Below the pieces are notes generated by a model. That model saw nothing but the letters and a program-made list of their open reading frames with translations, did not search any database and was not told the DNA's origin. From a phage, in NCBI GenBank assembly GCA_014685065.1, contig GCA_014685065.1_4092.2: 64,000 nt of DNA; one strand, 5' to 3'. Position numbers and translations under genes: made by a program. Position 1 is the first letter of the stretch. Every line of letters begins with the position of its first letter. Positions 19,741-51,625 of the stretch are shown piece after piece.

Positions 19741-19804
19741 ATTCCCTCCTTTATTTGTTATACTATATTTAATACAAATAAGAAAGCCAGTACAGTGTAC
19801 TGGC
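19741..19804 (-). promoter_or_regulatory. array intergenic terminator/promoter cassette
   Basis: hairpin 19786-19804 + conserved block. Confidence 0.5.
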
Positions 19805-19810
19805 ATTATG

Positions 19811-20920
19811 TTATTTTGGTAAATCAATTTTAGTAAAGACTGCAACATCCTCGATTGCACCTGGAATGGCGTAATACGATCCAGTACTATACACATCTCC
19901 ATTTTTGGTTAATATCGATGTCAAACCATCACTAAAAAGAACATCCCTAATCTCACTAACTTCAACGGGTAATTGTAAATTGGTAGCACTATATATAGCA
20001 CCAGTTTGAGAATTGTTTAATCCCAAACCACGGTTCGCCCCAACACCCTTCTGATATGTACTAGTAATTACCATTTGTGTAGCAGTATTTAAGGCAGGTG
20101 AATTCGTCATAAACAATGGAGAACTATTAGGCAAAGTACTTACAGGAACTGCACGGAATGTAGTCGTACCTGAACTAAGAAAGTTTGGAGTTTGACCACA
20201 TACGAAATATGATGTACCATTATAGTAATTTAATGCATTACCACCAATGGCTGCATCGATTACACCAGAACTACGCAATCCCCAAGTGTTAATTTGTGTT
20301 TGGTTCCCCGTACCATGCTGCCCACTACTATTCCATCCAGAACTATATAGCTTATTATCTAATGTAAGATACATACTATCATTCGCATTGGTCATTACTT
20401 TACGAACGTTCGTAGCACATTGAGTTAATGTGTAAATTGATGAGGAACCAATACCCAAAGAACCACGATATCCATTATCTCCTGCACCATAGAGTACTGA
20501 ATTAGTGCTAAGTACAAATATTAAACCATTTGTACATACAATATTAGCAATTTCACTTACTGGTATAGCATTGGTAAACCAATTAGTTCTTTCAACTAAT
20601 ACAGTACTGTAAGAAGTAGTTGTAGAAGATGAGAACCAGTACGTTTGACCTGATGTCCATATCGTATTATCATTTTTAATAATAACAAGTGTACGATCAC
20701 CCACGAAAAAATTAGAAACATCTGCACTTACTAATGTCCACGAAGACACCGTGTTGGTATTACCATTTCCAGATTCACCACCTTGATTTCTACCTATGTA
20801 ATATAAATCATGTGAATCAGTCAATAAGAATTGGCCTTGGGTAGAAGCACCAACTTTAATTATTTTTTTAGGACCAGGGACAATATTTCCATACCTAATC
20901 ATTCTTCCAAAAGGTAACAT
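19811..20920 (-). CDS. RCC1-like beta-propeller protein with MLPFGRM leader
   Basis: ATG at 20918-20920 after AGGAGGG. Confidence 0.75.
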   Translation of the reverse strand: MLPFGRMIRYGNIVPGPKKIIKVGASTQGQFLLTDSHDLYYIGRNQGGESGNGNTNTVSSWTLVSADVSNFFVGDRTLVIIKNDNTIWTSGQTYWFSSSTTTSYSTVLVERTNWFTNAIPVSEIANIVCTNGLIFVLSTNSVLYGAGDNGYRGSLGIGSSSIYTLTQCATNVRKVMTNANDSMYLTLDNKLYSSGWNSSGQHGTGNQTQINTWGLRSSGVIDAAIGGNALNYYNGTSYFVCGQTPNFLSSGTTTFRAVPVSTLPNSSPLFMTNSPALNTATQMVITSTYQKGVGANRGLGLNNSQTGAIYSATNLQLPVEVSEIRDVLFSDGLTSILTKNGDVYSTGSYYAIPGAIEDVAVFTKIDLPK

Positions 20921-20928
20921 ATTCCCTC

Positions 20929-22131
20929 CTATTGTTGCCATAACTGCGTTGGCATTAATGTTAGTGTAGTAATACTATAAGTACCATTAGGTAATCTACC
21001 ACCATTTCCATTCCAGCCACCACATGCATATAATTTATAATCTTTAGTAATTATTATGGTTCTGCTCCAATCTTTAGATGCCATAAGAACATTGTCATAA
21101 CCACCACTTATTGCACTAAGATTAAAAATATTCCAAGTTCTAACTAATGTATTAGTTCCATTACCTTCTTGACCATATGAGTTAGCACCACTACTTCTAA
21201 CATATGGTGCGTATTGTGCCATAGGTGCACCAATTGATGCATTTCCCATATTACTTGGACAAATAAAAGTACTGTACTTACTTACATCAACCGTGACCGA
21301 TGTGTTCCTAATTGGTGTTAGCTGATTTACCGATGTAGTCGTACCATTACCAGCTTGTCCAGTACTGTTAGCCCCGCTATAATATACAGACCCACCAGTA
21401 GTAAACCACCAAGTAACATCGTATGTAGTACTAATATGTTCTACATTACTAATCACGAATTTGTTCAAATATACAACAGAACTACCACCACATCCACTTT
21501 CACCAAAGTTATCCTTACCACAAAACCATGCATCTTTATTTGATTTGATATAGTGCGTTCCTTGTAATGAACATGCCATATGTGTAACTTCACCCATATT
21601 AGTCATAACTGTGAGTGTAGGGATGGAATTTTTATTACCAGAGCCACATTCACCATTGGTATTTCTTCCACACGCAATTACTCTACCATCGGTTAATAAT
21701 ATTCTAGTACTTTCACCTATATATACACTCTTGATCATATTAGCCATAACACCTATTTTATTAAATGCAACAGTAACATCAGTCCATGTTGTCAAATAAC
21801 CATTAACAGGTGTTGCATCTCCATAATCAGAAAATGCACCAACCGACCCAGTGTAGTATATTTTATTATCCAAATCAATCATCAATGAACCTTGAACACC
21901 AAGCCAAAAGGCTGCACAGTTCCTTGCAAGTACTGTAAATGACGAAACTGCTGCTGAATTCCCAAGACCAAATTGATAAAAGTTATTACTACCATAACCA
22001 TATAAAGTATTAGTTGGGTTATGGAGATACATACAGTTTGTATAATGTTGTTGTAAAACATCTGAGAACTCTACAGGTTCTGGACCTGGTGCAATATTTG
22101 CGTACTTAACCATTCTTCCAAAAGGTAACAT
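20929..22131 (-). CDS. RCC1-like beta-propeller protein with MLPFGRM leader
   Basis: ORF track; motifs GANSTGQAGNG, GANSYGQEGNG. Confidence 0.75.
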   Translation of the reverse strand: MLPFGRMVKYANIAPGPEPVEFSDVLQQHYTNCMYLHNPTNTLYGYGSNNFYQFGLGNSAAVSSFTVLARNCAAFWLGVQGSLMIDLDNKIYYTGSVGAFSDYGDATPVNGYLTTWTDVTVAFNKIGVMANMIKSVYIGESTRILLTDGRVIACGRNTNGECGSGNKNSIPTLTVMTNMGEVTHMACSLQGTHYIKSNKDAWFCGKDNFGESGCGGSSVVYLNKFVISNVEHISTTYDVTWWFTTGGSVYYSGANSTGQAGNGTTTSVNQLTPIRNTSVTVDVSKYSTFICPSNMGNASIGAPMAQYAPYVRSSGANSYGQEGNGTNTLVRTWNIFNLSAISGGYDNVLMASKDWSRTIIITKDYKLYACGGWNGNGGRLPNGTYSITTLTLMPTQLWQQ

Positions 22132-22209
22132 ATTTCCCTCCTTTATTTGTTATATCATATTTACCACAAAAAGAAAACCCTTGACATCCTTTCTGGACTC
22201 ATTTATAAT
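22132..22209. promoter_or_regulatory. divergent promoter region: plus-strand TTGACA(22181)-N17-TATAAT(22204); minus-strand TATGATATAACAAATAAAGGAGG block
   Basis: read directly. Confidence 0.5.
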
Positions 22210-22232: not shown

Positions 22233-22478
22233 ATGAACAATGTAATAGATCACTACCAAGCACTTAGCCAAAGTACTAAGAACTATATGAGCTACATGAA
22301 CGCAGAAGATTTCGCATTCTTCCTCTCAAAATTCTGTGCAATCAATACCCTCAAAAAAAGTACTACCCCAACAAGTGCACTTATGTTGAATTGCTTTATA
22401 GAGGACATCTTTGAGGGACTACAAAACCCTGACGAAAGTAAACGATTCATTAACCTTTTAGTACTGGCATCTATATGA
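22233..22478 (+). CDS. HKEYY-family small protein (divergent member)
   Basis: ORF track; SD AAGGAG. Confidence 0.5.
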   Translation: MNNVIDHYQALSQSTKNYMSYMNAEDFAFFLSKFCAINTLKKSTTPTSALMLNCFIEDIFEGLQNPDESKRFINLLVLASI

Positions 22479-22684
22479 CCCAAGAACAAATTATGCAGTA
22501 CTACCTATGTGCTCTGTCAAAAGGTGAACAGAATAGCATAGAGCATCAACAAATTATACTTGCAAATGCAAAACGTTCGGCACTTCTGCTTAACTCAGTC
22601 AGAAATAACCTCATAAGGAATTTCCTTGAAGGTAACGAGTCTATGCAGTACTATTTCATCTTAACACTATTAATCGAGTACTAA
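22475..22684 (+). CDS. HKEYY-family small protein
   Basis: ATGA overlap; C-terminal LTLLIEY. Confidence 0.5.
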   Translation: MTQEQIMQYYLCALSKGEQNSIEHQQIILANAKRSALLLNSVRNNLIRNFLEGNESMQYYFILTLLIEY

Positions 22685-22685
22685 T

Positions 22686-22895
22686 ATGAATACTGAACAT
22701 AAAGAATTCTACACCAAATACCTTAGCAACGAAGAACAATTGTTTCTAAGGAGTGTATCACCTTTAAGTATAGATACACCACACGCCAGAGATTGCTTTA
22801 ATAATTGTATACGTAGTACTATAGAAGCAATCGAATGTAATAACAAAAATATTATGTACTCAGGTTTAATAGGACTAATATATTTCTATGAATAA
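22686..22895 (+). CDS. HKEYY-family small protein
   Basis: MNTEHKEFYTKYL..LIGLIYFYE. Confidence 0.55.
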   Translation: MNTEHKEFYTKYLSNEEQLFLRSVSPLSIDTPHARDCFNNCIRSTIEAIECNNKNIMYSGLIGLIYFYE

Positions 22896-23082
22896 TCATA
22901 AAGATTTCTATTGTAGTAAACTACCCAAACAAGAACAGCTATCATTCTCTTTAGCACCACCTATGAGAAAGGATAATCTGTATTATAATTACGATTTCAG
23001 GATGGTGACACGTTATGCAATAGAACATACGTTCCCTGCAACTAAGTACCGCTCTATCCTGAACCTCATCTTTAAGTTCTAA
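22888..23082 (+). CDS. HKEYY-family small protein
   Basis: MNNHKDFY..LNLIFKF. Confidence 0.55.
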   Translation: MNNHKDFYCSKLPKQEQLSFSLAPPMRKDNLYYNYDFRMVTRYAIEHTFPATKYRSILNLIFKF

Positions 23083-23134
23083 AAGGTACACCAAGGACCG
23101 AGTACTTTAATATAGTAAGGCTAATTACATTATA

Positions 23135-23320
23135 ATGAATCATATAAGCTACTACTACCAACAACTATCCGACAGAGACAAGTACAGTCACAACTCCCAT
23201 GTGTGGTACTACAAACGCGGCAGTATAAGAGACAAACAACATTACTTCTGTATTTCTATTAAAGAAGCACTAACAACTAAGTACACGTACCGAGCAGTAC
23301 TTAAACTTATTGAAATGTAA
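23135..23320 (+). CDS. HKEYY-family small protein (divergent)
   Basis: ORF track. Confidence 0.45.
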   Translation: MNHISYYYQQLSDRDKYSHNSHVWYYKRGSIRDKQHYFCISIKEALTTKYTYRAVLKLIEM

Positions 23321-23328
23321 GGAAGAAA

Positions 23329-23511
23329 ATGAATATAGAATTCTATTTAACTAAACTACAACACGCCGAAAGATTCAATTTCAATAAGTTCAGTATTTTC
23401 TACAATTGCGGGAACAAAAAAGATAAACACACCTTCCTATATGTCGTCACAAGAGATGCACAAAACGAAAAGTACACATACAGAGAAGTAATGAAACTAA
23501 TCGCTATTTAA
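23329..23511 (+). CDS. HKEYY-family small protein (divergent)
   Basis: ORF track; shares KYTYR.V.KLI with 23135 gene. Confidence 0.45.
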   Translation: MNIEFYLTKLQHAERFNFNKFSIFYNCGNKKDKHTFLYVVTRDAQNEKYTYREVMKLIAI

Positions 23512-23519
23512 GGAATACT

Positions 23520-23699
23520 ATGCAACAATTCTATATAGAACGTATAACCATAAAAGACCGTTTCATGTACGACACCTTCGTTGATTACTACAACCTAGGA
23601 ACAAAAAGTACTAAAAATATTAATCTCAATAGCTGCATTTATGCTGTACTAACACAAGATAATCCCTACAGGGAAATCCTCGCCTTGGCATCTATATAA
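23520..23699 (+). CDS. HKEYY-family small protein (59 aa)
   Basis: hand-translated MQQFYIER..ILALASI; below track threshold. Confidence 0.4.
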   Translation: MQQFYIERITIKDRFMYDTFVDYYNLGTKSTKNINLNSCIYAVLTQDNPYREILALASI

Positions 23700-23709
23700 A
23701 GGAAACCAA

Positions 23710-24381
23710 ATGAAACTTAATGCACACAGCAAACAATACCTTAAGCACTTTAAGTACCTCAATAGTATTCAGGCAGAATCAGTTACATCTGCATATACGT
23801 ATCACCCGAATGTACTAAAGAAACGAAATAAAAAGGAAAAAACCAGTACAAATGGAGTTAACGTATCAAAGAACCTTGAATTGTACATGAAGAAAAATAA
23901 TATAGCTGTTCATTATATGAATATCTATAATACTGATTTAAAAGTATTGAGTACTAATACGAGCATGAAGGTACTAAAGAACGCATCCTTCATCATCCAT
24001 ATGCAGTTGGATAATACCCCGTGCACTTTAATGCTATACTTCGGGAATACATACTTCTTCGGGAATTGTAACACCTCCCACGATGTCAATACAGCACAAT
24101 TCCAAATGGGTGGCATATACAATATGGGTTCAAAAAAAGTACACGAGAATATGCACTTCTGGCAAGCACAACGTACAGAAGAAACTAAATCAATTGTAGA
24201 TTTCCTCAAAGAACTAGAACACAAAGAACTACAGGAAGAAGAACTATTCATGTACAGTACTGTAATCGATAATCCAGTACTCTATAAAAACGCGTACAAT
24301 CTGACAAAACATGTACAGGAAATTATCAGTACTAATAAGAAAATGCATCACCTCATTACGTATATTACAAACTATGTATAA
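23710..24381 (+). CDS. hypothetical protein (223 aa) embedded in the small-gene array
   Basis: ORF track. Confidence 0.6.
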   Translation: MKLNAHSKQYLKHFKYLNSIQAESVTSAYTYHPNVLKKRNKKEKTSTNGVNVSKNLELYMKKNNIAVHYMNIYNTDLKVLSTNTSMKVLKNASFIIHMQLDNTPCTLMLYFGNTYFFGNCNTSHDVNTAQFQMGGIYNMGSKKVHENMHFWQAQRTEETKSIVDFLKELEHKELQEEELFMYSTVIDNPVLYKNAYNLTKHVQEIISTNKKMHHLITYITNYV

Positions 24382-24556
24382 AGAATACTATATCTCTAAA
24401 CTACCCGTGCAGCAAAAATACTTTGCTGCATACAAAGTTCTTCTCATAACTCGTGCCGCTCGATCTAACTACATGAATAGCGTAAAACGTGCTATAGAAA
24501 ATGATGACGCAATGAACCAGTACTATAACATTTTACTACTAATATATAAGTACTAA
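24374..24556 (+). CDS. HKEYY-family small protein
   Basis: MYKEYYISKLP..LLLIYKY. Confidence 0.55.
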   Translation: MYKEYYISKLPVQQKYFAAYKVLLITRAARSNYMNSVKRAIENDDAMNQYYNILLLIYKY

Positions 24557-24566
24557 AGAGAACAAC

Positions 24567-24749
24567 ATGCACAAAGAATACTACAGGGATAAAATACCTA
24601 TGCATCTCCAGCACCATATACCAACAGAACCAATAGGAATAAAAGATCACGCAAAGATAATGTTCCAACAATGTACTAAGTACACGCTCATATACGATGA
24701 TAATCCATATATGCTGTACTACGTAGTAATGCTAACATTCAGGTACTAA
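24567..24749 (+). CDS. HKEYY-family small protein
   Basis: MHKEYY..MLTFRY. Confidence 0.6.
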   Translation: MHKEYYRDKIPMHLQHHIPTEPIGIKDHAKIMFQQCTKYTLIYDDNPYMLYYVVMLTFRY

Positions 24750-24750
24750 T

Positions 24751-24942
24751 ATGAATAACCACAAAGAATACTACATAGAGAAACTCCCAATGTATCTCCA
24801 ACACCTTGTACCAACAGAACCATTGGGTATAGAAAAAAACTACGAAAAAGACTACTTCATTCAGTGCACTAAATCCTCGATATATATTGAAGACTATAAT
24901 CGAGTACTGTATCACATCCTTTTACTAATATATAAGTACTAA
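24751..24942 (+). CDS. HKEYY-family small protein
   Basis: MNNHKEYYIEKLP..LLLIYKY. Confidence 0.6.
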   Translation: MNNHKEYYIEKLPMYLQHLVPTEPLGIEKNYEKDYFIQCTKSSIYIEDYNRVLYHILLLIYKY

Positions 24943-24943
24943 T

Positions 24944-25126
24944 ATGCACAAAGAATACTACACACAATTTCTCCCCAGCATTTTTGAACACTACGCCAGA
25001 TATAAAGTCCCTCTGGATAACGATTTGGCAGTACTGGGATTCAATAACTGCATAGAACGAAGTATAGAAAATAGTAGTAGTTATGACCAGCTATATAACA
25101 CTATCCTACTTATATTCAGGTACTAA
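24944..25126 (+). CDS. HKEYY-family small protein
   Basis: MHKEYYTQFLP..LLIFRY. Confidence 0.6.
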   Translation: MHKEYYTQFLPSIFEHYARYKVPLDNDLAVLGFNNCIERSIENSSSYDQLYNTILLIFRY

Positions 25127-25127
25127 C

Positions 25128-25316
25128 ATGCATAAAGAATACTACACAAAATATTTCCCAATGTACCTCAGAACTAATCTATTAGATAAACCTCGCGGTA
25201 TCAATGCACAAAATGATAAAGTGTATTTTACTATGTGCACTAAAGCATGTATACTAGATTTTGACAGCTACCATCGAGTACTGTATCATACCCTGTACCT
25301 AGCTTTCGTATTCTAA
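25128..25316 (+). CDS. HKEYY-family small protein
   Basis: MHKEYYTKYFP..YLAFVF. Confidence 0.6.
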   Translation: MHKEYYTKYFPMYLRTNLLDKPRGINAQNDKVYFTMCTKACILDFDSYHRVLYHTLYLAFVF

Positions 25317-25325
25317 GAGAACAAT

Positions 25326-25511
25326 ATGCATAAAGAATTCTACTTAAGCCATCTGGATCTAAACTCCCAAATGCTTATACCACTAATCCCAATAGATATC
25401 AAGGATAAGAAAAATACCGAACAATTCATTTACCATACACAGTGTGCGATCACCCCAAATTACATTCCATATGAATTGTACTACATTCTCGCCCTAATAT
25501 ATAGGTACTAA
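25326..25511 (+). CDS. HKEYY-family small protein
   Basis: MHKEFYLSHL..LALIYRY. Confidence 0.6.
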   Translation: MHKEFYLSHLDLNSQMLIPLIPIDIKDKKNTEQFIYHTQCAITPNYIPYELYYILALIYRY

Positions 25512-25512
25512 T

Positions 25513-25698
25513 ATGCATAGAGAATACTACACACAATTTGTTAAAGGGAACTACAAACATGCCGTACCCAGAACCCCTTTAAATTCTCATGACCCAAGTA
25601 CTATATTCTTGTTTAATGACGCAATACGTACAGTACTCAATACTAAAGATGAAGATGTGCAGTACGTATTCTTACTATTACTTATATACAGACACTAA
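25513..25698 (+). CDS. HKEYY-family small protein
   Basis: MHREYYTQFV..LLLIYRH. Confidence 0.6.
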   Translation: MHREYYTQFVKGNYKHAVPRTPLNSHDPSTIFLFNDAIRTVLNTKDEDVQYVFLLLLIYRH

Positions 25699-25703
25699 CT
25701 AAT

Positions 25704-25886
25704 ATGAATAAAGAACATAAAGAATTCTATATAAGAAAACTAACATTCGTCCCCGTAAGAATATATAAAGAATGCGACCCAAGATTATACCTATGGCACT
25801 TCAATGAGTGCATAAAAGATTCTATATACCCTAAGAACTATAAAGAACAATTGTGCTCAGTACTAACACTAGTACTATCATATTAA
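25704..25886 (+). CDS. HKEYY-family small protein
   Basis: MNKEHKEFYIRKL.. Confidence 0.55.
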   Translation: MNKEHKEFYIRKLTFVPVRIYKECDPRLYLWHFNECIKDSIYPKNYKEQLCSVLTLVLSY

Positions 25887-25901
25887 TTAATAGAGAATAC
25901 T

Positions 25902-26093
25902 ATGTATAAAAACTTCTATATAAGTAAACTAAAAGAAAATGAACAAGTATGGATTAGATCTATAATTCCACTGGCATTTAATAGATATGCATTTAACAGA
26001 TGTACCGAGATTGCTATAGACCCTTATAATATTAAAGAGAATGTACAGTATAATCAGTACTACTATATCTTAATGCTTATATATAGGAAGTAA
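25902..26093 (+). CDS. HKEYY-family small protein
   Basis: MYKNFYISKL..LMLIYRK. Confidence 0.55.
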   Translation: MYKNFYISKLKENEQVWIRSIIPLAFNRYAFNRCTEIAIDPYNIKENVQYNQYYYILMLIYRK

Positions 26094-26207
26094 TTAAACA
26101 CAAGTAGACAGGGGAAGCTCCTAGTGAACAACCTTTATGTACAGGCGAATTGTTAAAATTCAGCCTGGACAAATGCGATCACTAGGATTCTCCCCAGGCT
26201 AAACCCC

Positions 26208-26300: not shown

Positions 26301-26426
26301 AGAGTACAGGAATGTTCACGTTTAATCAAGAACGTAGCAGTACTGATATGCCACTAAGTAGGCAGAGGAAGTCTGCCGTACTTTGTAGTTTCCAAGCTCC
26401 TTTTCCATTTTGCAAATTACATCAAA

Positions 26427-26456
26427 TGTAATCAAAAGTAATCAAAAGTAATCACG
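26427..26456. repeat. tandem 10-bp repeat GTAATCAAAA x2 + GTAATCACGC
   Basis: read directly. Confidence 0.65.
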
Positions 26457-27141
26457 CAATGATTAGTACTGAATTATTACTTTCACCTTAATTTCAATTA
26501 CCCCTTTACCCTTCGGGGTAAAATTCAATTACCCCTTGAGGCTCCAGCAAAAAGTTGGTTAGTACTCCATCCTAAATCTCGATCCTAAAAATTTTGGAGT
26601 ACCTATGAAATAAAAGTTGGATCTTCGAAAGTTGAAATTTACGTTGGGACATATAGGATTTGTGGGATATAATGAGTTTTGTAGCGATACAGATTATACG
26701 ATTTCAGTACTGAATAATGAAAGAAAGCTATTGACATTATGATTCAGTACTGTATAATGTTCTACATAGAGAGATGAGTTGCTGCGAACAATTCATTTAC
26801 TCTACCTCCTGTCGTGAGACAGTACAGAAAAGATAGTTCCTCCTGTGGTGGTACATCTTTTTGAACCTCATATGAAAATCGTAATAACAGTACTGATATT
26901 AACAGAATGGTGTCAGTACTGATTTTAATCTAAAGCATTATGCCACCAGCTTGTGCTGGTGGATTCCCTCTAACAGTATTCAGTACTACATGATAGTCTT
27001 CATCCTCCTACAGTAACAGTGAGGGCTATTGTGGCAGTACTGAATACTCCCTTTCAAAAGATAGATCTATGGTATAGTACTGACGGATTTTGGGCGTAGT
27101 AACCCTAGGTTGAATTTAGACGTAGAGATGTCTAGACCTCC

Positions 27142-27298
27142 AGATGGCTGGAAGTAAAGATGGCTATCCCTCTAGGCGGCTGGATGGCTAGATTTCTAGA
27201 TGGCTGTACTGCTAGACGTTTGGACGGCTAAACGGCTAGATGGTTACACGTCTGGATGTATAGACGGCTAAATCAAAATTTTTATTTTATTTTTTCCA
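27142..27298. repeat. iteron-like array (about 9 copies of RGAYGGCT, 27142-27269) followed by AT tract (27271-27298); candidate origin or packaging signal
   Basis: copies at 27142, 27158, 27182, 27198, 27222, 27231, 27238, 27262 plus degenerate ones. Confidence 0.45.
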
Positions 27299-27951
27299 AT
27301 AGTTCCCCTACCGCGTGGGGATGGTTTCCCCGCAGTATCTGGAGTTAGATTTTTCTGAATCTGGAATCATTATCCCCGTTTTCGCCTGGTATGTCAACCG
27401 TCTGGATGAATAATTTTAAAAAATAATCTAGTACTGAATTTTGGGCGTAACTATGCACCCGGTGGGCTTGAGTCTTTCTCGACTTGATGAAACTATTATA
27501 CAGTACTGAAAAAATAAAGCAATACCCTAAACGCAAAAAGTTTTAATTAATTTGCTTGCCATCCTGGGGCGTACTATGGTACTATATTTCAGTACTGAGA
27601 AAGTGCTATGACCTGCTAAGGTGCGGGAGTGTATCCTTTTTAAATTTACTGAATTTTGGGCGTAATTCCGCACCCCCAGGGGTATCCGCTTTCTCGCGTC
27701 TATGTAGTAATTATACGCTTTTTCGGTGCTGAGTCAATAGCTAAAAACAAAATAATTGAAAATAATTTAACGCGTTTAAACGGCCCGTAAAGCCCTGGTT
27801 AGCTGGTGGCGGTGCAAATGTATAGCTTAGGTGTATTAATGCGTTAGAAAGCGGCTGAGGCCGTTTTATGGTGTATAGTACTGATTCAGTACTGAAAGAT
27901 AGTTCCCCTATATAGAAAGAAAACTATTTTAAAAGTATTTGTAGAAAGTAC

Positions 27952-28399: not shown

Positions 28400-28413
28400 G
28401 TTTAATAAAGTAC

Positions 28414-28473
28414 TTGCAAACTAAGTTTAAAAGCGTATAATGTTTTACATCAGGTGGGGAATAGTTCCCCACT
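28414..28473 (+). promoter_or_regulatory. early promoter cassette (TTGCAA 28414, TATAAT 28436) + 5' hairpin GTGGGGAATAGTTCCCCAC
   Basis: read directly. Confidence 0.6.
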
Positions 28474-28492
28474 ATATAAGAGGATTAAAAAA

Positions 28493-28732
28493 ATGGCTAA
28501 ATCAAAAATGTTCTTAGGTCACAAAAACAAAACTCAATGGAATGTAAGCCTTTGGATTAATAACGACGAATCATTATACCGGTTGGCCCAGGACTTTATT
28601 GCCGCTAACACTAATCGTAATGATGCGGCCCGTCATATGATGCTATTTTTAGAACAGACTGGACAAGATAAAACACCGGACGGCTTTAAGTATAGCACTA
28701 CTGCGATCCGTGCGGCGATGGTTGGAATGTAA
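28493..28732 (+). CDS. hypothetical protein
   Basis: ATG at 28493 after SD AGAGGA downstream of hairpin. Confidence 0.55.
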   Translation: MAKSKMFLGHKNKTQWNVSLWINNDESLYRLAQDFIAANTNRNDAARHMMLFLEQTGQDKTPDGFKYSTTAIRAAMVGM

Positions 28733-30051: not shown

Positions 30052-30288
30052 ATGATCGAACAAATCAAAACTACAACGCCAAACGTAACGGGTACAGTAT
30101 CACACTTCATTGGTGACGATTCGCGGGGCGTTCCTTATTGTGCAGTACATGTAAACCAAAATGGCGACTACTGGCTAACGGTTTACGGTTCTTATTCTTT
30201 CGGGCGTAGTGCACACCAAAAGATCCTGGATAAAGTACAGCCAACGGGTAAAAATATCACCGCTGAGATGTTTTATAAAAAGCACTAA
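30052..30288 (+). CDS. hypothetical protein
   Basis: ATG at 30052 after SD AGGAG. Confidence 0.55.
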   Translation: MIEQIKTTTPNVTGTVSHFIGDDSRGVPYCAVHVNQNGDYWLTVYGSYSFGRSAHQKILDKVQPTGKNITAEMFYKKH

Positions 30289-30295
30289 AAAGTAC

Positions 30296-30354
30296 TTGCA
30301 AAGTAATTAGATTAACGTATAATACTTTATATCGAGAGCGGGAATAGTTCCCGC
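30296..30354 (+). promoter_or_regulatory. early promoter cassette + hairpin GCGGGAATAGTTCCCGC
   Basis: TTGCAA 30296, TATAAT 30318. Confidence 0.6.
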
Positions 30355-30373
30355 CTTTAATGAGGATTATCTA

Positions 30374-30675: not shown

Positions 30676-30879
30676 ATGAGTGATTTAATTGAACGTATCA
30701 AAGAGCTTGAAGAAAAAGAATTGCAGTTGATCGGGTTACGGAATAAAGTATTCCATGATTTAGGTGGCTTCATTAATGCCTGGGATAGTGGCGATCCTGA
30801 TGCGTTACCTGCTAACCGCCAGGCGATGATCAATGATGTGCGTGGTGTCTTTGATTATGTTTTAAAGCAATTAAATTAA
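30676..30879 (+). CDS. hypothetical protein
   Basis: same GAGGATTATCTAATG start context as 30374. Confidence 0.55.
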   Translation: MSDLIERIKELEEKELQLIGLRNKVFHDLGGFINAWDSGDPDALPANRQAMINDVRGVFDYVLKQLN

Positions 30880-30887
30880 AAAAGTAC

Positions 30888-30947
30888 TTGCAATTAGTTT
30901 TTAGTACTGTATAATAGTTTACATCAAGGGGGGAAATGGTTCTCCCC
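30888..30947 (+). promoter_or_regulatory. early promoter cassette + hairpin
   Basis: TTGCAA 30888, TATAAT 30910, GGGGGAAATGGTTCTCCCC. Confidence 0.6.
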
Positions 30948-30966
30948 ACTAATAAGGAGTTTTACA

Positions 30967-31188
30967 ATGGCTAATATCACTACTCTTTCCCAGCTTGAAG
31001 CACTGGTTAAATCTATGCGGGCACATGTTGACAGTATCGGCGTAGAAGATCCGGCTGTATGTTTTTGTGACGAAATAAATGATGATACGCTCGTCATTGC
31101 AGAAGTACAAGACGTTTCTAACTATTCATCGCGTTACACTTGCGGAGTATCAAAGAAAGGTGATTTCTGTTTATATCTTACTAAGTAA
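30967..31188 (+). CDS. hypothetical protein
   Basis: ORF track; SD AAGGAG. Confidence 0.6.
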   Translation: MANITTLSQLEALVKSMRAHVDSIGVEDPAVCFCDEINDDTLVIAEVQDVSNYSSRYTCGVSKKGDFCLYLTK

Positions 31189-46299: not shown

Positions 46300-46548
46300 T
46301 GCGTAAAGGGATCTAGTACTGATTCAGAAAAAAGTCAAGGCGTTTTTAAAATTATGCGTTAAAAAAATGCATAGGTAATCCCTTGACTTTTTTGAAATAA
46401 AAGGGATTGGACTATGGCAAAATGCGTAGGGGGCTAAAGGGCGGGTAACCTTAGCGACTTCGATAAAGGGGTATTACGAATAAAATGTTATTGACTTTTT
46501 ATACAAATCGTATAAAATATGATTGATATTAATTTTAAGGGAGTCCCT

Positions 46549-46746
46549 ATGCGTATTTTAACTCAAGCAGAACACCACGAAAGACTTATCAATAACATGG
46601 CTATGATAATGTATAAGTCACATGAACGTGGTATTGCCTATAAGCGTGAATTAATTATGGCACTATTCATTGGAACTAACTTTCAGGAAAGGTATGTCAA
46701 GGATTGGATTTGGTATTTAATTGAAGATGTAACGAGTAAACTATGA
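46549..46746 (+). CDS. LGTNYQ-family small protein
   Basis: ATG after SD AAGGGAG; motif IGTNFQERYV. Confidence 0.55.
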   Translation: MRILTQAEHHERLINNMAMIMYKSHERGIAYKRELIMALFIGTNFQERYVKDWIWYLIEDVTSKL

Positions 46747-46943
46747 AAATGCGTAAATTAACCGAAAAAGAATATCAAGCACTGTTACGTAAAAACTTCA
46801 CAAAGATTTATAATACAGACTCACACGTAGAACGAATGGAGTTATACCTTTTGATTACATTGGGAACTAACTATCAGGATGCATGGGTAACGAAATATGT
46901 GGATACATTGAAAAATAAAACATTGTCCACGAGGAAACAATGA
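46743..46943 (+). CDS. LGTNYQ-family small protein
   Basis: ATGA overlap; LGTNYQDAWV. Confidence 0.6.
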   Translation: MKMRKLTEKEYQALLRKNFTKIYNTDSHVERMELYLLITLGTNYQDAWVTKYVDTLKNKTLSTRKQ

Positions 46944-47155
46944 AAACTATAACACGAACCCAATCATTCGGACTTATCTTGAAATACATGGACTTAATGG
47001 TGGATATCAGCAAAGACCTTAGTAAAACTGAAATTGAAGTTGCAATTGCAAGAGCAGAGTTCCGCATGTTGGCTGTACTGAACACAAACCATCAGGAAGA
47101 TTATGTTGAAGAATGGATTCATTTTTTAATAGAAGATATAAAGAGTAAATTATGA
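46940..47155 (+). CDS. LGTNYQ-family small protein
   Basis: ATGA overlap; LNTNHQEDYV. Confidence 0.6.
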   Translation: MKTITRTQSFGLILKYMDLMVDISKDLSKTEIEVAIARAEFRMLAVLNTNHQEDYVEEWIHFLIEDIKSKL

Positions 47156-47367
47156 TTATTATAGAAAACTCATATCAATATACTGAACGCATCGCTGCCA
47201 GACAACTTGAAATCCTCATAATATACGAAGAGACTTCTGATTTAAACTTAGCCGAGGTATTGGAAAATGATATACTATTGGGTGCATTCTTAGGAACAGA
47301 CTATCAGAAGTATTATGAGGAAAAGTATTTGTCATCTCTTGAGAAATACATCAGGAGTAAACTATGA
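47152..47367 (+). CDS. LGTNYQ-family small protein
   Basis: ATGA overlap; LGTDYQKYYE. Confidence 0.6.
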   Translation: MIIIENSYQYTERIAARQLEILIIYEETSDLNLAEVLENDILLGAFLGTDYQKYYEEKYLSSLEKYIRSKL

Positions 47368-47576
47368 TTTTTTTAACACCAGAAGAATATAAGAAACGTT
47401 TCAAATCCGCACAGGGTGAAATCTTACTTATATACCTTTCAAATGCAGACCTTGACTTATCAAGGGTATTAGAAAAAGATTTACTTATGGGTGCATTTTT
47501 GGATACAGACTTTCAGGAGTATTATGTAGGGGAATACTTAATTGCACTCCAGAAATACATCAGGAGTAAACTATGA
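47364..47576 (+). CDS. LGTNYQ-family small protein
   Basis: ATGA overlap; LDTDFQEYYV. Confidence 0.6.
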   Translation: MIFLTPEEYKKRFKSAQGEILLIYLSNADLDLSRVLEKDLLMGAFLDTDFQEYYVGEYLIALQKYIRSKL

Positions 47577-47791
47577 AACATTTAAGTATCACCGAGAAGA
47601 ATAAAATTGTCATTGCTGCAATAAACAAATATTTTACACTTCCTCACAAAGAAGGTTTATGTGTAAGGGAACACAGGATAAACACCACCGATATACGCAT
47701 GATGGCTGTACTGGGGACGAACTTTCAGGAAGAGTATGTTGTTGCACACATAGTTGCCCTCACAAATCTAATAAGGGATAAATGTAAATGA
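47573..47791 (+). CDS. LGTNYQ-family small protein
   Basis: ATGA overlap; LGTNFQEEYV. Confidence 0.6.
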   Translation: MKHLSITEKNKIVIAAINKYFTLPHKEGLCVREHRINTTDIRMMAVLGTNFQEEYVVAHIVALTNLIRDKCK

Positions 47792-48045
47792 AATACTTAA
47801 CTTCTGACGAATATTCACTTAGAATTCGTAAACTCACCCCAGAAGCAAGAGTAATCTACGATGACGATGCACTTTCATGGGTCGAGATGAAAGTTAAAGT
47901 TCATGAGCTATGGTTGCTGTACTTTGTGGGAACCCAATATCAAGAGAAATATTGTACCGATTATCTTGAACAACTAATGGATCTTATACAGGAAAAACTA
48001 AATGATCGAATTGTGGAAAAATATGAAAACTTTATCAAGCACTGA
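47788..48045 (+). CDS. LGTNYQ-family small protein
   Basis: ATGA overlap; VGTQYQEKY. Confidence 0.55.
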   Translation: MKYLTSDEYSLRIRKLTPEARVIYDDDALSWVEMKVKVHELWLLYFVGTQYQEKYCTDYLEQLMDLIQEKLNDRIVEKYENFIKH

Positions 48046-48274
48046 GTATCAAACTGCCCTCTTCTCCCTTCTAAACACCCTCCGCACGAACAATAAACTT
48101 TATAATTCCCGTGAAGCTGATATCATCAATGCTGAGGTATATCTTAATAAATTCATAGGGACAAACTATCAAGAAATGTTCACTCAACGATATATCTCTG
48201 CACTGAGAAACGCAATATGTGATAAAACCCGCCAAGCCCAAAGAGAATGGAATAAACAATGCGACAAAGACTAA
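48023..48274 (+). CDS. LGTNYQ-family small protein
   Basis: internal ATG of tracked ORF; IGTNYQEMF. Confidence 0.5.
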   Translation: MKTLSSTEYQTALFSLLNTLRTNNKLYNSREADIINAEVYLNKFIGTNYQEMFTQRYISALRNAICDKTRQAQREWNKQCDKD

Positions 48275-48510
48275 ATCACAAAATGTATTGTAAACTATTG
48301 CAGACACTGGCACAGAAACACTATGACACTGTATCTGAAATATTACCCTATGATATCATGCGTTTAATTCATAGTGAGGCAGAGATGCTTGTACTGATGA
48401 CAGGCACTGATAAAAAAGCAATTGCCAAATCAATAGATATGTTCATCGAAGCACAATGTCAACACATTAGAACCGAGATATGGAGACGAGAGAATGATAA
48501 CACTAAATGA
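48259..48510 (+). CDS. LGTNYQ-family small protein (divergent)
   Basis: ORF track; start uncertain. Confidence 0.45.
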   Translation: MRQRLNHKMYCKLLQTLAQKHYDTVSEILPYDIMRLIHSEAEMLVLMTGTDKKAIAKSIDMFIEAQCQHIRTEIWRRENDNTK

Positions 48511-48709
48511 GTTTCAGTATCATTGGAGGTTACAAACTATCAAATCAAAAGTGTATAGTATTGTGTTAAACAAATCTATTGCACAAGAGGACAAATGTGT
48601 TATAATAGCTGAAATGAAGTTGGGTGCTTTCGTAGGGACAAACTATCAAAACATCTACACTGACGTATTGTTAAGTGCCTTACGTAACAAGGTGGTATCC
48701 AAAATATGA
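48494..48709 (+). CDS. LGTNYQ-family small protein
   Basis: VGTNYQNIY. Confidence 0.55.
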   Translation: MITLNEFQYHWRLQTIKSKVYSIVLNKSIAQEDKCVIIAEMKLGAFVGTNYQNIYTDVLLSALRNKVVSKI

Positions 48710-48924
48710 GAAATTTACAAGGCTTTGAATACATCAGACTCCTGAAAACATGCACCAGCAGAAGGAAAATCTTATCAAGCGATAAGAGCATCCAAGCTAA
48801 CCTTAAGCACGCACTAGTAACTGAACTCTATGTAGGTGCACTCTTAGGCACAAATTATCAACAAATGTATGTAGATCTATGGATTGACGCTCTACAGAAA
48901 GAGGTTAAAAGTAAATGCAAATGA
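48706..48924 (+). CDS. LGTNYQ-family small protein
   Basis: ATGA overlap; LGTNYQQMYV. Confidence 0.6.
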   Translation: MRNLQGFEYIRLLKTCTSRRKILSSDKSIQANLKHALVTELYVGALLGTNYQQMYVDLWIDALQKEVKSKCK

Positions 48925-49133
48925 TTAATTTAAGTAAAGACGAATTTTATGTTATACTGGCGAAAACTTATCCAGCACGTAAGGCCGTTTATGATAGTCA
49001 CATTATTGAACCCTCAAAGAAGTTGATTTTAGTAAATGAGATAAAGATGCTTTCAGTCTTAGGAACAAACTATCAAGAGAATGCTGTACTGATGTTAATT
49101 GATGCCCTCCAGCGAGAGGTTAAACGTAAATGA
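48915..49133 (+). CDS. LGTNYQ-family small protein
   Basis: LGTNYQENAV. Confidence 0.6.
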   Translation: MQMINLSKDEFYVILAKTYPARKAVYDSHIIEPSKKLILVNEIKMLSVLGTNYQENAVLMLIDALQREVKRK

Positions 49134-49360
49134 AAATGATTAATTTAACTTACCATGAATATCAAAAACGTTTAAATGCATCCAGAGATATAAGGATTCA
49201 AATATTCAATAACAAAAGATTGAAGCCTGATATCAGGAAAATCAAAATCATAGAAGCCGTGTTGTGCAACTTCCTAGGGACTAACTATCAGGAAGGTAAG
49301 GTAGAAAACTATCTTATAGAACTCATGAATAGTATTGAAAATAAATGTAAGGGTAATTAA
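49130..49360 (+). CDS. LGTNYQ-family small protein
   Basis: ATGA overlap; LGTNYQEGKV. Confidence 0.6.
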   Translation: MKMINLTYHEYQKRLNASRDIRIQIFNNKRLKPDIRKIKIIEAVLCNFLGTNYQEGKVENYLIELMNSIENKCKGN

Positions 49361-49361
49361 C

Positions 49362-49601
49362 ATGAAAATGATTAAATTATCTCAAGCAAAATATAAAGAA
49401 CGCCTGGTAAAAATTGCACCTGGACTTAATGAAATCCATCACGGAGAAGTCATTAAACACGGAAATAAGATGATTATGAAACTTGAGTTAAAGGTGGGTG
49501 CATTCATAGGAACAAACTATCAGGAGTATTATGTAGATGAATACATAATCGCACTTAAGAGATACATTGGAAGAAAACTATATCTACAAACTAAAGAATA
49601 G
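49362..49601 (+). CDS. LGTNYQ-family small protein
   Basis: IGTNYQEYYV; internal ATG of tracked ORF. Confidence 0.55.
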   Translation: MKMIKLSQAKYKERLVKIAPGLNEIHHGEVIKHGNKMIMKLELKVGAFIGTNYQEYYVDEYIIALKRYIGRKLYLQTKE

Positions 49602-49630
49602 TATTGAAAATAAATGTAAGGGTAATTAAC

Positions 49631-49894
49631 ATGCAAATGATCAATTTAAGTAAAGATGAATATACCGAGCGTATGACAAAAATTACGCACAAACGTAATA
49701 CAATCTATCACAACCCAGAAATTCAACACAGTAAGAAAATGATTATGATGCGTGAGTTAAAGATGGGTGTATTCTTAGGAACAAACTATCAAGATACAGA
49801 AGTAAATCGCTTAATCGCGGAGTTACTACTGGAAATCAGAGGTAAGCTGTACTTTCATCAAATGACCCAACCACTGAGGTGTACTAAGAAATGA
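49631..49894 (+). CDS. LGTNYQ-family small protein
   Basis: LGTNYQDTEV; upstream junction is a duplicate of 49320-49365. Confidence 0.55.
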   Translation: MQMINLSKDEYTERMTKITHKRNTIYHNPEIQHSKKMIMMRELKMGVFLGTNYQDTEVNRLIAELLLEIRGKLYFHQMTQPLRCTKK

Positions 49895-50106
49895 TCAACA
49901 TCACATTGCAAGAAAGATTCATCCGAATCAACTATGCAATTACCAAATTAGATGCTACTATAGGATTCCAAAGTCTACCATACAAAACCAGATTGTTATT
50001 AGAGTGTGAAGCTAAGTTGGGTGTACTATTAGGGACGCAACACCAACAACGATATGTGGAAATCTGGATTGATCTTTTAACCCAGGATGTACATGAGAGA
50101 ATGTAA
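49891..50106 (+). CDS. LGTNYQ-family small protein
   Basis: ATGA overlap; LGTQHQQRYV. Confidence 0.6.
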   Translation: MINITLQERFIRINYAITKLDATIGFQSLPYKTRLLLECEAKLGVLLGTQHQQRYVEIWIDLLTQDVHERM

Positions 50107-50364
50107 ATGCAAAATGAAATGATATACTTAACCTATAATGAATACGTCGAGAGATTAGTTCGTGCCAAGAGATATACCAATAAACGTCCAATTGACCTAA
50201 ACCAAACCCCTGCCGAAAGGAGTGCAGAAGTTTTATACATTCAACTCATGTACTTTCTTGGCACTGACAGACAAGAGTATTACATTGAAAGTATGCTTCG
50301 ATATCTTAAATTCTCTATAAAGGAAAAGATACATGCTCAAGAATTTAAAAATCCTAACAGTTAA
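50107..50364 (+). CDS. LGTNYQ-family small protein
   Basis: LGTDRQEYY. Confidence 0.55.
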   Translation: MQNEMIYLTYNEYVERLVRAKRYTNKRPIDLNQTPAERSAEVLYIQLMYFLGTDRQEYYIESMLRYLKFSIKEKIHAQEFKNPNS

Positions 50365-50575
50365 TGAATATCATACGATTGTAATGAAAACTAATAGTGC
50401 AATTTCTAAAAAATCAAACCCAAAGTACATACTGGAACACACATTCGAAGAACGTCAATTAGCTTTAGTTGAAGCAAAACTTCTTGCACTCCTAGGAACA
50501 AACTATCAAGAAGAATACATCAGAAAACTAATATACCTTTTAACTAAACATATAAGAAAAAGAAAAAATGCATGA
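50333..50575 (+). CDS. LGTNYQ-family small protein
   Basis: LGTNYQEEYI; 32-nt overlap with previous gene. Confidence 0.5.
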   Translation: MLKNLKILTVNEYHTIVMKTNSAISKKSNPKYILEHTFEERQLALVEAKLLALLGTNYQEEYIRKLIYLLTKHIRKRKNA

Positions 50576-50802
50576 AACACTTGACAGATGATGAACATGG
50601 GCTTATAGTAATGGATGTAATCAACATCGAATACAAAAAGTTGATACGCTACCGTTGTTATGAAGATAAGCAACTCGTTCTAGCAGAACAGAAGTTGTTT
50701 CGACTCTTAAACACAAACTTCCAAGCACAATACGAAGAATCGTATATGTACCTTTTGGCGAGGAAAGCAAAAAGAGATTATGAAAATTTTAAGCAAAGGT
50801 GA
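50572..50802 (+). CDS. LGTNYQ-family small protein
   Basis: ATGA overlap; LNTNFQAQY. Confidence 0.55.
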   Translation: MKHLTDDEHGLIVMDVINIEYKKLIRYRCYEDKQLVLAEQKLFRLLNTNFQAQYEESYMYLLARKAKRDYENFKQR

Positions 50803-50995
50803 TTCAGTAATATTACTTATAGAGAGTTCAAGTAAATTCTTAAACATAACATTGTCTGATATAGATGAGGATGAAAAAGAGTTACTGAGAGCAGATTTAA
50901 GAGTACTGTTACATATCGGAACAAACCTACAAGAAGAATATGTAGAGTGCTACATCAATGAACTTAAAGAATCAGTACTGAGAAAATGCAAATGA
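50780..50995 (+). CDS. LGTNYQ-family small protein
   Basis: IGTNLQEEYV. Confidence 0.55.
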   Translation: MKILSKGDSVILLIESSSKFLNITLSDIDEDEKELLRADLRVLLHIGTNLQEEYVECYINELKESVLRKCK

Positions 50996-51213
50996 AAATC
51001 ATTACCGATGTAGAATACCTAACAATCATAAATGGACTGTTTTTGAAGCTCTTCGTCATTAACACATCAGATATACCAGATATGGATAAAATTATTAAGA
51101 GAAATGAAGTCTATGTTCTAGCTACCCTGGGAACGAACTATCAAGAACACGACATTAATGATTATATTAATACACTTAAACGAGCGATTGAATTAAAATG
51201 CCAAAACCCCTAG
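50986..51213 (+). CDS. LGTNYQ-family small protein
   Basis: LGTNYQEHDI. Confidence 0.6.
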   Translation: MQMKIITDVEYLTIINGLFLKLFVINTSDIPDMDKIIKRNEVYVLATLGTNYQEHDINDYINTLKRAIELKCQNP

Positions 51214-51413
51214 GAACAGCAGAATACATTGAACTCATGGGATTACACTTCTCATCCTTTCAGAAACTTATGCGAGAATCAAAGAATGATTTAGAATATC
51301 ACATCAAAAGTTCAGATTTAAGAATGCTTCTCACTCTAAACACAGATTCCCAAGAGCGTTTTGTCAATGAGCATATTAGAGCACTTTTAAATGGCATCAA
51401 GGATAGACTATGA
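51198..51413 (+). CDS. LGTNYQ-family small protein
   Basis: LNTDSQERFV. Confidence 0.55.
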   Translation: MPKPLGTAEYIELMGLHFSSFQKLMRESKNDLEYHIKSSDLRMLLTLNTDSQERFVNEHIRALLNGIKDRL

Positions 51414-51625
51414 AGGAAATATCAAATCAAGAGTACTTGGCACTATTCAGGAAGAATAATCACAAATATATGGCACTTGATTCAAGAACTGATATAGGGG
51501 AACTTGAAAAAAATCTTTTGCGTTCAGAGATGATAGTACTGACACTCTTAGGAACACAGCATCAAGAGAGAACTGTTAATTCACACATAGGTATTCTTAT
51601 ACAGATAGTACAGGAAAAGATATGA
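51410..51625 (+). CDS. LGTNYQ-family small protein
   Basis: ATGA overlap; LGTQHQERTV. Confidence 0.6.
   Translation: MKEISNQEYLALFRKNNHKYMALDSRTDIGELEKNLLRSEMIVLTLLGTQHQERTVNSHIGILIQIVQEKI

Follow-up and report, generated by a model that had tools for sequence, protein, structure and literature searches.

A genus-restricted tandem array of small, diversified proteins in an Asteriusvirus jumbo coliphage, possibly directed at the host

A stretch of phage DNA of 64,000 nucleotides (contig GCA_014685065.1_4092.2 of NCBI assembly GCA_014685065.1; hereafter the window) carries a real, uncharacterised, genus-restricted early multigene family: 16 small plus-strand genes which, together with one gene of 223 amino acids (aa), are packed between positions 22233 and 26093 and are named here g01 to g17, the large gene being g08 (Table 1). 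From its sequence, the array is best explained as one early operon, and we consider, with a probability of about 0.42, that it may encode a battery of early host-directed binder proteins serving takeover or anti-defence. This reading draws on the early-type promoter and the tight packing of the genes, on predicted soluble mini-domains with a fixed core and a variable surface, and on the restriction to one genus. It also draws on birth-and-death and recombinational turnover, on relaxed constraint, and on the lack of any array-region product in the available part of the virion-proteome table of phage phAPEC6. The window belongs to an Asteriusvirus jumbo coliphage of the 121Q/PBECO4/G17 group, with 94-98% nucleotide identity to Escherichia phages 121Q, PBECO4, G17, slurp01 and Sharanji, all of the genus Asteriusvirus, whose members are jumbo myoviruses of about 350 kb. 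The array region is annotated as 'hypothetical protein' in the records of all the relatives, and a search of the literature found no paper describing the family or the array.

A preliminary description of this DNA, made from the letters and their open reading frames (ORFs), had placed 16 small plus-strand genes at 22233-26093 with the 223-aa gene at 23710 as the sole interruption, and the ORF positions bear this out. The gene sizes that it gave hold with two exceptions: the ORFs listed at 24311 (81 aa) and 25083 (77 aa) are over-extended, since the family motif and the 121Q and G17 annotations place their starts at 24374 (60 aa) and 25128 (62 aa). The genes do lie end to end or overlapping, with overlaps of 4-8 nt (g01/g02, g03/g04 and g08/g09) or gaps of 1-15 nt; single-base stop-start spacing (TAA-N-ATG) occurs at five junctions, and the other spacers are of 5-15 nt, most with a visible Shine-Dalgarno (SD) sequence (AAGGAA, AGAGAA etc.). 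The exception is a single gap of 52 nt, which aligns with the last ~52 nt of an extra 69-aa family gene (cassette S) in G17 and slurp01 and has its junction at a short AAGGT repeat. Real coding is supported by the conservation of the ORFs in nine genomes, by the SD sequences and the TAA-N-ATG or ATGA junctions, and by a pooled ratio of non-synonymous to synonymous substitution rates (dN/dS) of 0.33-0.51; the confident fold prediction and its agreement with an independent model, given below, point the same way. Rfam gave no match at E <= 0.1 between 21500 and 31500, and there is no tRNA in or near the array. That the array acts as a DNA-level repeat is unlikely, because the copies are not nucleotide repeats and the paralogues are only 26-48% identical in protein.

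To judge whether this is one family, the score of each copy with a leave-one-out hidden Markov model (HMM) was compared with those of 200 shuffles of the same sequence. Eleven copies (g03, g04 and g09-g17) form a core family, at 31-67 bits versus at most 13 bits for the best shuffle. In PHROGs v4, 11 of the 16 copies match phrog_11711 (best E 5e-28), while g01, g02 and g05-g07 have no match to it; this group, which has no function or description, and the proteins 121Q gp251-265, G17_00054-00069 and slurp01_00152-00167, all 'hypothetical protein', belong to the same family as those 11. The other copies were compared by hhalign, with profiles enriched with orthologues from eight relatives. The core aligns end to end both with subfamily B (g05-g07; E 2.8e-9, 96% probability) and with type C (g02; E 3.7e-7, 93% probability), and g02 scores 12 bits with the core HMM, a value equalled by none of 500 shuffles. 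Type D (g01) appears weakly linked to the family: it is collinear with type C at E 1.3e-3 and 18% probability, and among 741 stop-to-stop segments of the window the best non-self match of its HMM is g02 (E 0.006). The family HMMs found no further matches elsewhere in the 64-kb window.

All the copies had been described as sharing an N-terminal HKEYY and a hydrophobic C-terminal motif. The former holds in the loose form [HY][KR][EDN][YF]Y for 11 of the 16 copies, but literally for four; an aromatic-Tyr pair lies near the N-terminus in 15 of 16, and g01 is without any. The latter, written L[LAM]LI[YF][KR][YHK], is present in five copies but missing in the remainder. The protein quoted as an example was correct and is g12 (24944-25126). 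The array is genuine, yet the label of 16 HKEYY-type paralogues overstates its uniformity.

We then looked for the family beyond the window. A profile search of 5.8 billion protein clusters returned 68 clusters, the named ones being Asteriusvirus phages or E. coli assemblies, with long carrier contigs of ~350 kb; a full HMMER scan of 1.84 billion representatives gave 31 matches, which are ~60-70-aa phage-type proteins plus one 531-aa repetitive sequence (P0087), a low-complexity repeat that was treated as a chance match and not as a relative. By tblastn, 36 phage records were found, all of Escherichia or Salmonella phages and, where taxonomy was checked, Asteriusvirus; about 36 phage records contain orthologues with 90-100% identity. 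A DNA-pattern scan of IMG/VR found 121Q only, and two metagenome contigs show the same layout, with an RCC1-like array followed by a small-gene array that has a ~222-aa gene inside. Judging from these sequence collections, the family appears to exist only in Asteriusvirus, and the profile-HMM search that the preliminary description had proposed as a check gave matches confined to Asteriusvirus-type proteins. That description had not recognised the family, and we found no known domain or fold either: Pfam-A gave nothing credible for the small proteins (two single-copy matches, E 0.028 and 0.1), NCBIfam had zero matches for the family, PADLOC no credible match (one copy at E 0.013), and the best E was 0.68 in a PDB sequence profile search and 3.6 with Foldseek against PDB, while Foldseek against BFVD retrieved family members only. 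The 17 operon proteins contain neither a helix-turn-helix (HTH) nor any other Pfam domain.

Structure prediction, a further check proposed at the outset, gave for g11 a confident four-helix model with no PDB match (AlphaFold2, 63-sequence family alignment; predicted local distance difference test score (pLDDT) 92, predicted template modelling (TM) score 0.76), with helices at residues 3-9, 14-17, 30-45 and 49-62 and a long loop at 18-29. The BFVD model of another family member, 30% identical, has the same fold (TM 0.79-0.83). Among 72 core-type sequences the low-entropy columns are H4, K5, E6, [YF]7, Y8, L12, P24, F36, [TI]40, [IL]44, [YL]53, I56, L57, L59, I60, [YF]61 and Y63; conserved columns make up 19 of 63 and are nearly all hydrophobic or aromatic. 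The variable residues are 13-16, 18-19, 22-23, 25-35, 37-38, 41-42, 45-52, 55 and 58, with entropy near 3-3.6 bits in loop and surface columns, so that the variable middles described earlier are recovered across these sequences. Isoelectric points range from 5.1 to 9.6, and the copies have 0-3 Cys each, without CxxC pairs and with one semi-conserved C39 (42 of 72 sequences).

L, I, Y and F abound at the C-terminus, as would be expected if these were tail-anchored or membrane-active small proteins of a holin-, spanin- or immunity-like kind. We regard this as highly improbable: the hydrophobic run is of 8-10 residues, the highest 19-residue Kyte-Doolittle mean is 1.02 (usual cut-off 1.6), the fourth helix is buried in a globular bundle in the model, and the conserved positions follow the alternating pattern of an amphipathic helix that is packed. 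Since no 19-residue window exceeds a hydropathy of ~1.0, the proteins are probably soluble, with the C-terminus as core; hydropathy and the g11 model together rule out a membrane anchor, and the hydrophobic tail is predicted to be a buried last helix.

The expression setting also looks early. The promoter-like sequence before g01 is found at the same position in 8 of 8 relatives, with a perfect -35 box and a -10 box of 4-6/6. Perfect TTGACA-N16-18-TATAAT sites number 14 in the window, all on the plus strand, against 0.19 expected, and most of them are extended to AGTACTGTATAAT, which is probably the early promoter signature of the phage. Terminator-like sites are absent within the array, the first hairpins after it lying at 26361-26377 and 26888-26921. 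The 12/12 promoter sequence, conserved in position, and the adjoining terminal repeat with similar promoters thus agree with the early-region setting that had been proposed from the letters. In phage CBB, RpoD-like promoters cluster in a short-ORF region, taken by its authors as early host-takeover genes (PMC5259590). Entries in the available part of the phAPEC6 virion-proteome table skip from gp347 to gp549, and the family member there is gp542c; as far as this part of the table goes, the array proteins are probably not virion components.

To the left of the array lie ten RCC1-like paralogues (10339-22131, minus strand), and to the right a long series of small plus-strand genes. The RCC1-like gp549 and gp551 are listed in the same part of the phAPEC6 table. 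In the window every RCC1-like gene forms a unit by itself, having a terminator hairpin of its own and a different promoter-like cassette, TTAAATATAGTATAATGAATAAAGGAGG, which suggests that these genes are of a different temporal class. The repeated cassette found before several of them (e.g. upstream of 16049, 17309 and 18529) consists of a hairpin GCCAGTACnnnGTACTGGC, a T run and TTAAATATAGTATAATGAATAAAGGAGG.

The embedded gene g08 matches phrog_29152 (function unknown) and has no Pfam match; its homologues are from Asteriusvirus only, and it has the same position in the array in every relative and in the metagenome contigs. It is unrelated to the small genes (its HMM scores, about -2 to 3 bits, fall among those of shuffled sequences; hhalign E 0.42), and a fusion with a degenerate C-terminal family domain, seen by eye in EHKEL...HHLITYITNYV, is contradicted by both the HMM and hhalign. 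The AlphaFold2 model of g08 is unusable (pLDDT 40). The gene diverges along with the array, at 41% aa identity to JNE01 versus 87-96% for the flanking proteins; its first ~35 residues are near-identical even in the JNE01 allele. For the g08 of the window, dN is 0.032 and dS 0.024 versus slurp01, a ratio of 1.36 that comes from few changes, and the ratio is 0.48 versus TH47.

Such neighbours raise the alternative that the small proteins are directed at the phage itself, as chaperones, adaptors or regulators of its own paralogous proteins (e.g. the ten RCC1-like ones of the virion, whose genes adjoin the array in divergent orientation), or as interchangeable small subunits of a g08 complex. In all the relatives and metagenome contigs examined, the RCC1-like array, the small-gene array and g08 are found together; the divergence of g08 parallels that of the small genes, and a JNE01-like recombination block covers two RCC1-like genes together with g01 and g02. 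However, co-divergence is equally predicted by plain physical linkage, the RCC1-like genes are monocistronic, with their own terminators and the different cassette TTAAATATAGTATAATGAATAAAGGAGG, and they appear in the phAPEC6 virion table, the available part of which does not list array-region products. We therefore hold a phage-directed role to be decidedly unlikely.

The strong diversification of the array is real. By HMM, the family has 16 copies in the window and in 121Q, 17 in G17 and PBECO4, 20 in slurp01, ~18 in TH47 (a record marked unverified, with some copies frameshifted), 15-16 in JNE01 and 16-17 in Turkey5. At >=70% identity, the copies of 8 genomes (15-20 each) fall into 48 orthogroups, none of them universal. 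Their order in the window is A, B, C...P, and the array appears to be a mosaic, because A and B are JNE01/Turkey5 types and C-P are 121Q types: g01 is 79-83% identical to the first array gene of JNE01 and Turkey5 and 27% to that of 121Q, and g02 is JNE01-type (90% aa identity). Single-cassette differences among the relatives involve S, W, X, T, U and V. Versus JNE01, 22700-26147 is essentially unalignable at the nucleotide level while the flanks are 83-91% identical; for the proteins, identity is 96% and 87% for the flanking ones versus 41% for g08 and 30-58% for the small proteins. Versus slurp01, it is the array that is the more similar, with 97-98% nucleotide identity against 88-90% for the right flank. 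The segment at 19.7-22.7 kb of the window (two RCC1-like genes plus g01 and g02) is JNE01-like, and the rest of the region is 121Q-like. The island and its flanks thus have separate histories, the island being the more divergent part in one comparison and the more similar part in the other, which indicates recombinational exchange: cassettes appear to be gained and lost, and whole sets swapped, while the flanks are conserved.

Frequent recombination between relatives implies that co-infection is common, and the early, small, hypervariable and lineage-specific pattern would be the same if the proteins served competition between phages, through superinfection exclusion or interference with co-infecting phages, with their diversity tracking rival phages. 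Known exclusion proteins are usually membrane-associated, though, and the array proteins are without a transmembrane segment; no evidence separates this possibility from host-directed binding, and we judge it quite improbable.

With regard to selection, pooled dN/dS for the small genes (0.33-0.51) is 3-4 times that of most downstream early genes (0.05-0.19). Split by column class (Nei-Gojobori), omega is 0.09-0.40 for conserved and 0.45-1.07 for variable columns, a pattern indicative of a clearly constrained core and a near-neutral surface.

The location of the array bears on how such variation is to be read. Bases 1-20668 of G17 recur with 100% identity at 350150-370817, and on the right the G17 record ends in the reverse complement of the window sequence at ~26356; sequence coverage had pointed to a terminal redundancy of ~20 kb in G17 (PMC6563267), and for Sharanji a direct terminal repeat of 20,668 bp was obtained with PhageTerm (PMC11895373). 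By homology, we infer boundaries in the window at ~26356 and ~46451, with a whole copy of the terminal repeat between them. The array ends 262 bp short of the first boundary, outside the repeat, which is itself rich in small genes with similar promoters. A second tandem array starts 68 bp beyond the ~46451 boundary (46519-51843, plus strand) and comprises 23 head-to-tail genes of ~66-90 aa with the motif (L/V)GTNYQE.YV; it is unrelated to the four HKEYY subfamilies (hhalign E > 0.04). Each boundary thus has a tandem array of small paralogues on its unique side, with 16 copies at one and 23 at the other, and the two arrays are mutually unrelated.

The small genes might on this evidence be dispensable by-products of a duplication-prone region, copies shuffled at the repeat boundary that are foldable and have little or no specific function. 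The unrelated arrays at both inferred boundaries, the almost neutral variable columns and the loss of copies without visible consequence would all fit. The clear purifying selection on conserved columns would not, nor would the fact that every verified genome has a conserved promoter and retains 15-20 intact copies, ribosome-binding sites included, nor the confident common fold kept at 25-45% identity; on balance we find this explanation unlikely.

Several points nevertheless weigh against the host-directed binder reading. The omega obtained by column class is never clearly above 1, and positive selection is not demonstrated; as omega in the variable columns is 0.45-1.07, relaxed constraint would account for the rates equally well as diversifying selection. 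The hypervariability could come in part from the location at a repeat boundary prone to duplication and recombination. Part of the conservation of the C-terminal [KR]-Y-stop may lie at the nucleotide level, because AGGTACTAAT-ATG holds the SD-like AGG of the following gene. The domain, PDB, PADLOC and NCBIfam searches revealed no likeness to any known anti-defence or takeover protein, and a search of the literature found no transcriptome or infected-cell proteome for Asteriusvirus; expression and its timing are read from sequence motifs.

If the host-directed binder reading is right, the host sigma-70 RNA polymerase would start at 22181-22209 and read ~4 kb through 17 packed cistrons, many of them translationally coupled, to yield sixteen distinct soluble proteins of ~7 kDa and one of 26 kDa (g08). 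Each small protein would be the same four-helix mini-domain, whose conserved core of aromatic and hydrophobic residues is built from the N-terminal HKEYYxxKL helix, the C-terminal YYxILLLIY[KR]Y helix and, in helix 3, F36, C39 and I44; differences between copies would lie in net charge, in the long loop, on the exposed sides of helix 3 and in the turn that leads to helix 4. The copies would then make up a panel of stoichiometric binders (inhibitors or decoys) whose targets are variable proteins of the host, most plausibly ones involved in defence or takeover; gains and losses of cassettes, together with recombination when relatives co-infect, would keep changing the panel. The early timing of transcription, the binding of proteins and the nature of the targets are all inferred.

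Table 1. The tandem array and associated features of the window
Feature	Position	Strand	Remarks
Putative sigma-70-type promoter of the array, TTGACA-17 nt-TATAAT	22181..22209	+	12/12 consensus, 24 nt before g01
g01, 81 aa, type D, possible distant family member	22233..22478	+	strong SD AAGGAG
g02, 69 aa, type C family member	22475..22684	+	start overlaps g01 by 4 nt (ATGA)
g03, 69 aa, core family	22686..22895	+	leave-one-out HMM 42.8 bits
g04, 64 aa, core family	22888..23082	+	leave-one-out HMM 33.7 bits; 8-nt overlap with g03
Putative deletion scar, 3' remnant of lost cassette S	23083..23134	+	aligns with gene end in G17/slurp01
g05, 61 aa, subfamily B	23135..23320	+	matches g06, g07 at E 1e-5 to 1e-10
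g06, 60 aa, subfamily B	23329..23511	+	SD AAGGAAG
g07, 59 aa, subfamily B	23520..23699	+	SD AAGGAA
g08, 223 aa, unrelated protein inside the array	23710..24381	+	phrog_29152 match
g09, 60 aa, core family	24374..24556	+	leave-one-out HMM 44.9 bits; 8-nt overlap with g08
g10, 60 aa, core family	24567..24749	+	leave-one-out HMM 49.6 bits
g11, 63 aa, core family, modelled copy	24751..24942	+	leave-one-out HMM 66.8 bits
g12, 60 aa, core family	24944..25126	+	leave-one-out HMM 37.0 bits; junction with g11 TAA-T-ATG
g13, 62 aa, core family	25128..25316	+	leave-one-out HMM 33.1 bits
g14, 61 aa, core family	25326..25511	+	leave-one-out HMM 36.9 bits
g15, 61 aa, core family	25513..25698	+	leave-one-out HMM 36.8 bits
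g16, 60 aa, core family	25704..25886	+	leave-one-out HMM 30.7 bits
g17, 63 aa, core family, last array gene	25902..26093	+	leave-one-out HMM 34.4 bits
Inferred terminal-repeat boundary and first hairpin after the array (GGCAGAGGAAGTCTGCC)	26356..26377	+	homology to G17
Perfect sigma-70 sites	1244, 22181, 26731, 29322, 35934, 36206, 37635	+	
Perfect sigma-70 sites, continued	38674, 39652, 39920, 40279, 40709, 43140, 44665	+	

Other features of the terminal-repeat region were noted in passing. The GGCAGAGGAAGTCTGCC hairpin is listed as terminator-like, with a weak T run. Just inside the repeat, 26394-27893 is a segment of ~1.5 kb with no ORF above 63 aa and no annotated gene in the relatives, yet five phages agree in 76-95% of its columns, and codon phasing is absent from the substitutions. 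The plus strand of 26765-27764 has an RNA folding z of -6.0, versus -3.8 for the other strand. Three units of the form CTGAATTTTGGGCGTAA..GCACCC occur in the 1.5-kb segment, along with short repeats that resemble GGCTAGATGG and numerous CAGTACTG palindromes; the segment has no Rfam match and may be a packaging or terminus element, an origin-like element or a non-coding RNA. A perfect sigma-70 promoter sequence at 26731-26758 is followed ~130 nt later by a strong hairpin and T run (26888-26921, a terminator in the G17 annotation), and 26731-26930 (plus strand) is a candidate small RNA of ~165 nt; 7 of its 46 predicted pairs have compensatory changes in JNE01, among three distinct sequences only. 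An intergenic repeat of ~95 bp, probably a promoter/terminator module, recurs among the small genes of the terminal repeat (28407-28500, 30286-30369 and 30874-30979) and is also present in the relatives. Elsewhere in the window, two further sets of tandem paralogues lie on the plus strand at 60906-61995 (3 genes of ~120 aa) and 62005-63896 (4 genes of ~150-160 aa).

The array resembles known systems in layout and evolutionary behaviour, and is homologous to none. Early gene modules for host takeover are located at terminal repeats in phages SPO1 (the terminal-redundancy module) and T5 (the pre-early region), with takeover activity shown for some SPO1 and T5 genes, and tandem copy-number variation near genome ends is familiar from the gene 'accordions' of poxviruses. 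Like the array, the modules of SPO1, T5 and CBB (PMC5259590) are one-direction clusters of small genes behind strong host-type promoters, in or beside a long terminal repeat; they are made up of unrelated genes without sequence similarity to ours, whereas the array consists of paralogues and lies just outside the repeat. Small lineage-restricted proteins in a variable, probably early locus are also typical of anti-CRISPR and anti-defence operons, but those encode unrelated proteins and usually an HTH regulator (Aca), while the array is all paralogues and has no HTH. Other jumbo phages too have expanded sets of paralogues: Bacillus phage G carries a zinc ribbon in ~35 copies (PMC7824862) and CBB has 22 paralogous ORFs (PMC5259590), and tandem duplication was noted for phAPEC6 as a route of jumbo-phage genome expansion (PMC7247149). 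The array proteins lack the CxxC pairs of a zinc ribbon and are predicted to be all-helical mini-bundles with no PDB match. The second tandem family at 46519-51843 has the same layout (head-to-tail ~70-aa genes on the plus strand, beside a boundary) and an unrelated sequence.

The multigene families MGF100/110/360/505 of African swine fever virus (PMC12197721) are likewise tandem paralogues near terminal repeats whose content varies by gain, loss and recombination, and a host-range or immune-evasion role, experimental there and inferred here, has been proposed for them; they belong to another virus realm and host, have no homology to the array, and the array proteins are far smaller (60 aa). 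One might speculate that the array is a phage counterpart of such families of large eukaryotic DNA viruses: a modular and rapidly reshuffled set of binders, serving host range or anti-defence, that all use one helical scaffold of 60 aa not seen before. A mechanical link to the repeat boundaries would then underlie the expansion of the array, in that shifts of the boundaries, or recombination at concatemer junctions, would act as a gene-duplication engine, as the presence of unrelated tandem arrays at both boundaries might suggest. By analogy this is conceivable, though as a whole unlikely.

The function of most jumbo phage genes is unknown, 83% of the predicted products being uncharacterised in phAPEC6 (PMC7247149), and sixteen versions of one confidently predicted mini-fold behind a single promoter offer a compact and tractable case, for which natural 'swap' experiments are available in ~36 sequenced relatives. 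The pairing of two unrelated arrays with two repeat boundaries bears on how jumbo phage genomes grow. Should the small proteins prove to be near-neutral duplication products, they would provide a calibration for the reading of 'diversified small-gene arrays' in phage genomes. If they are host-directed binders, they would represent a new small scaffold for protein inhibition and would serve as probes for defence or takeover targets in E. coli and Salmonella, and would explain part of the host-range differences among therapeutic Asteriusvirus candidates.

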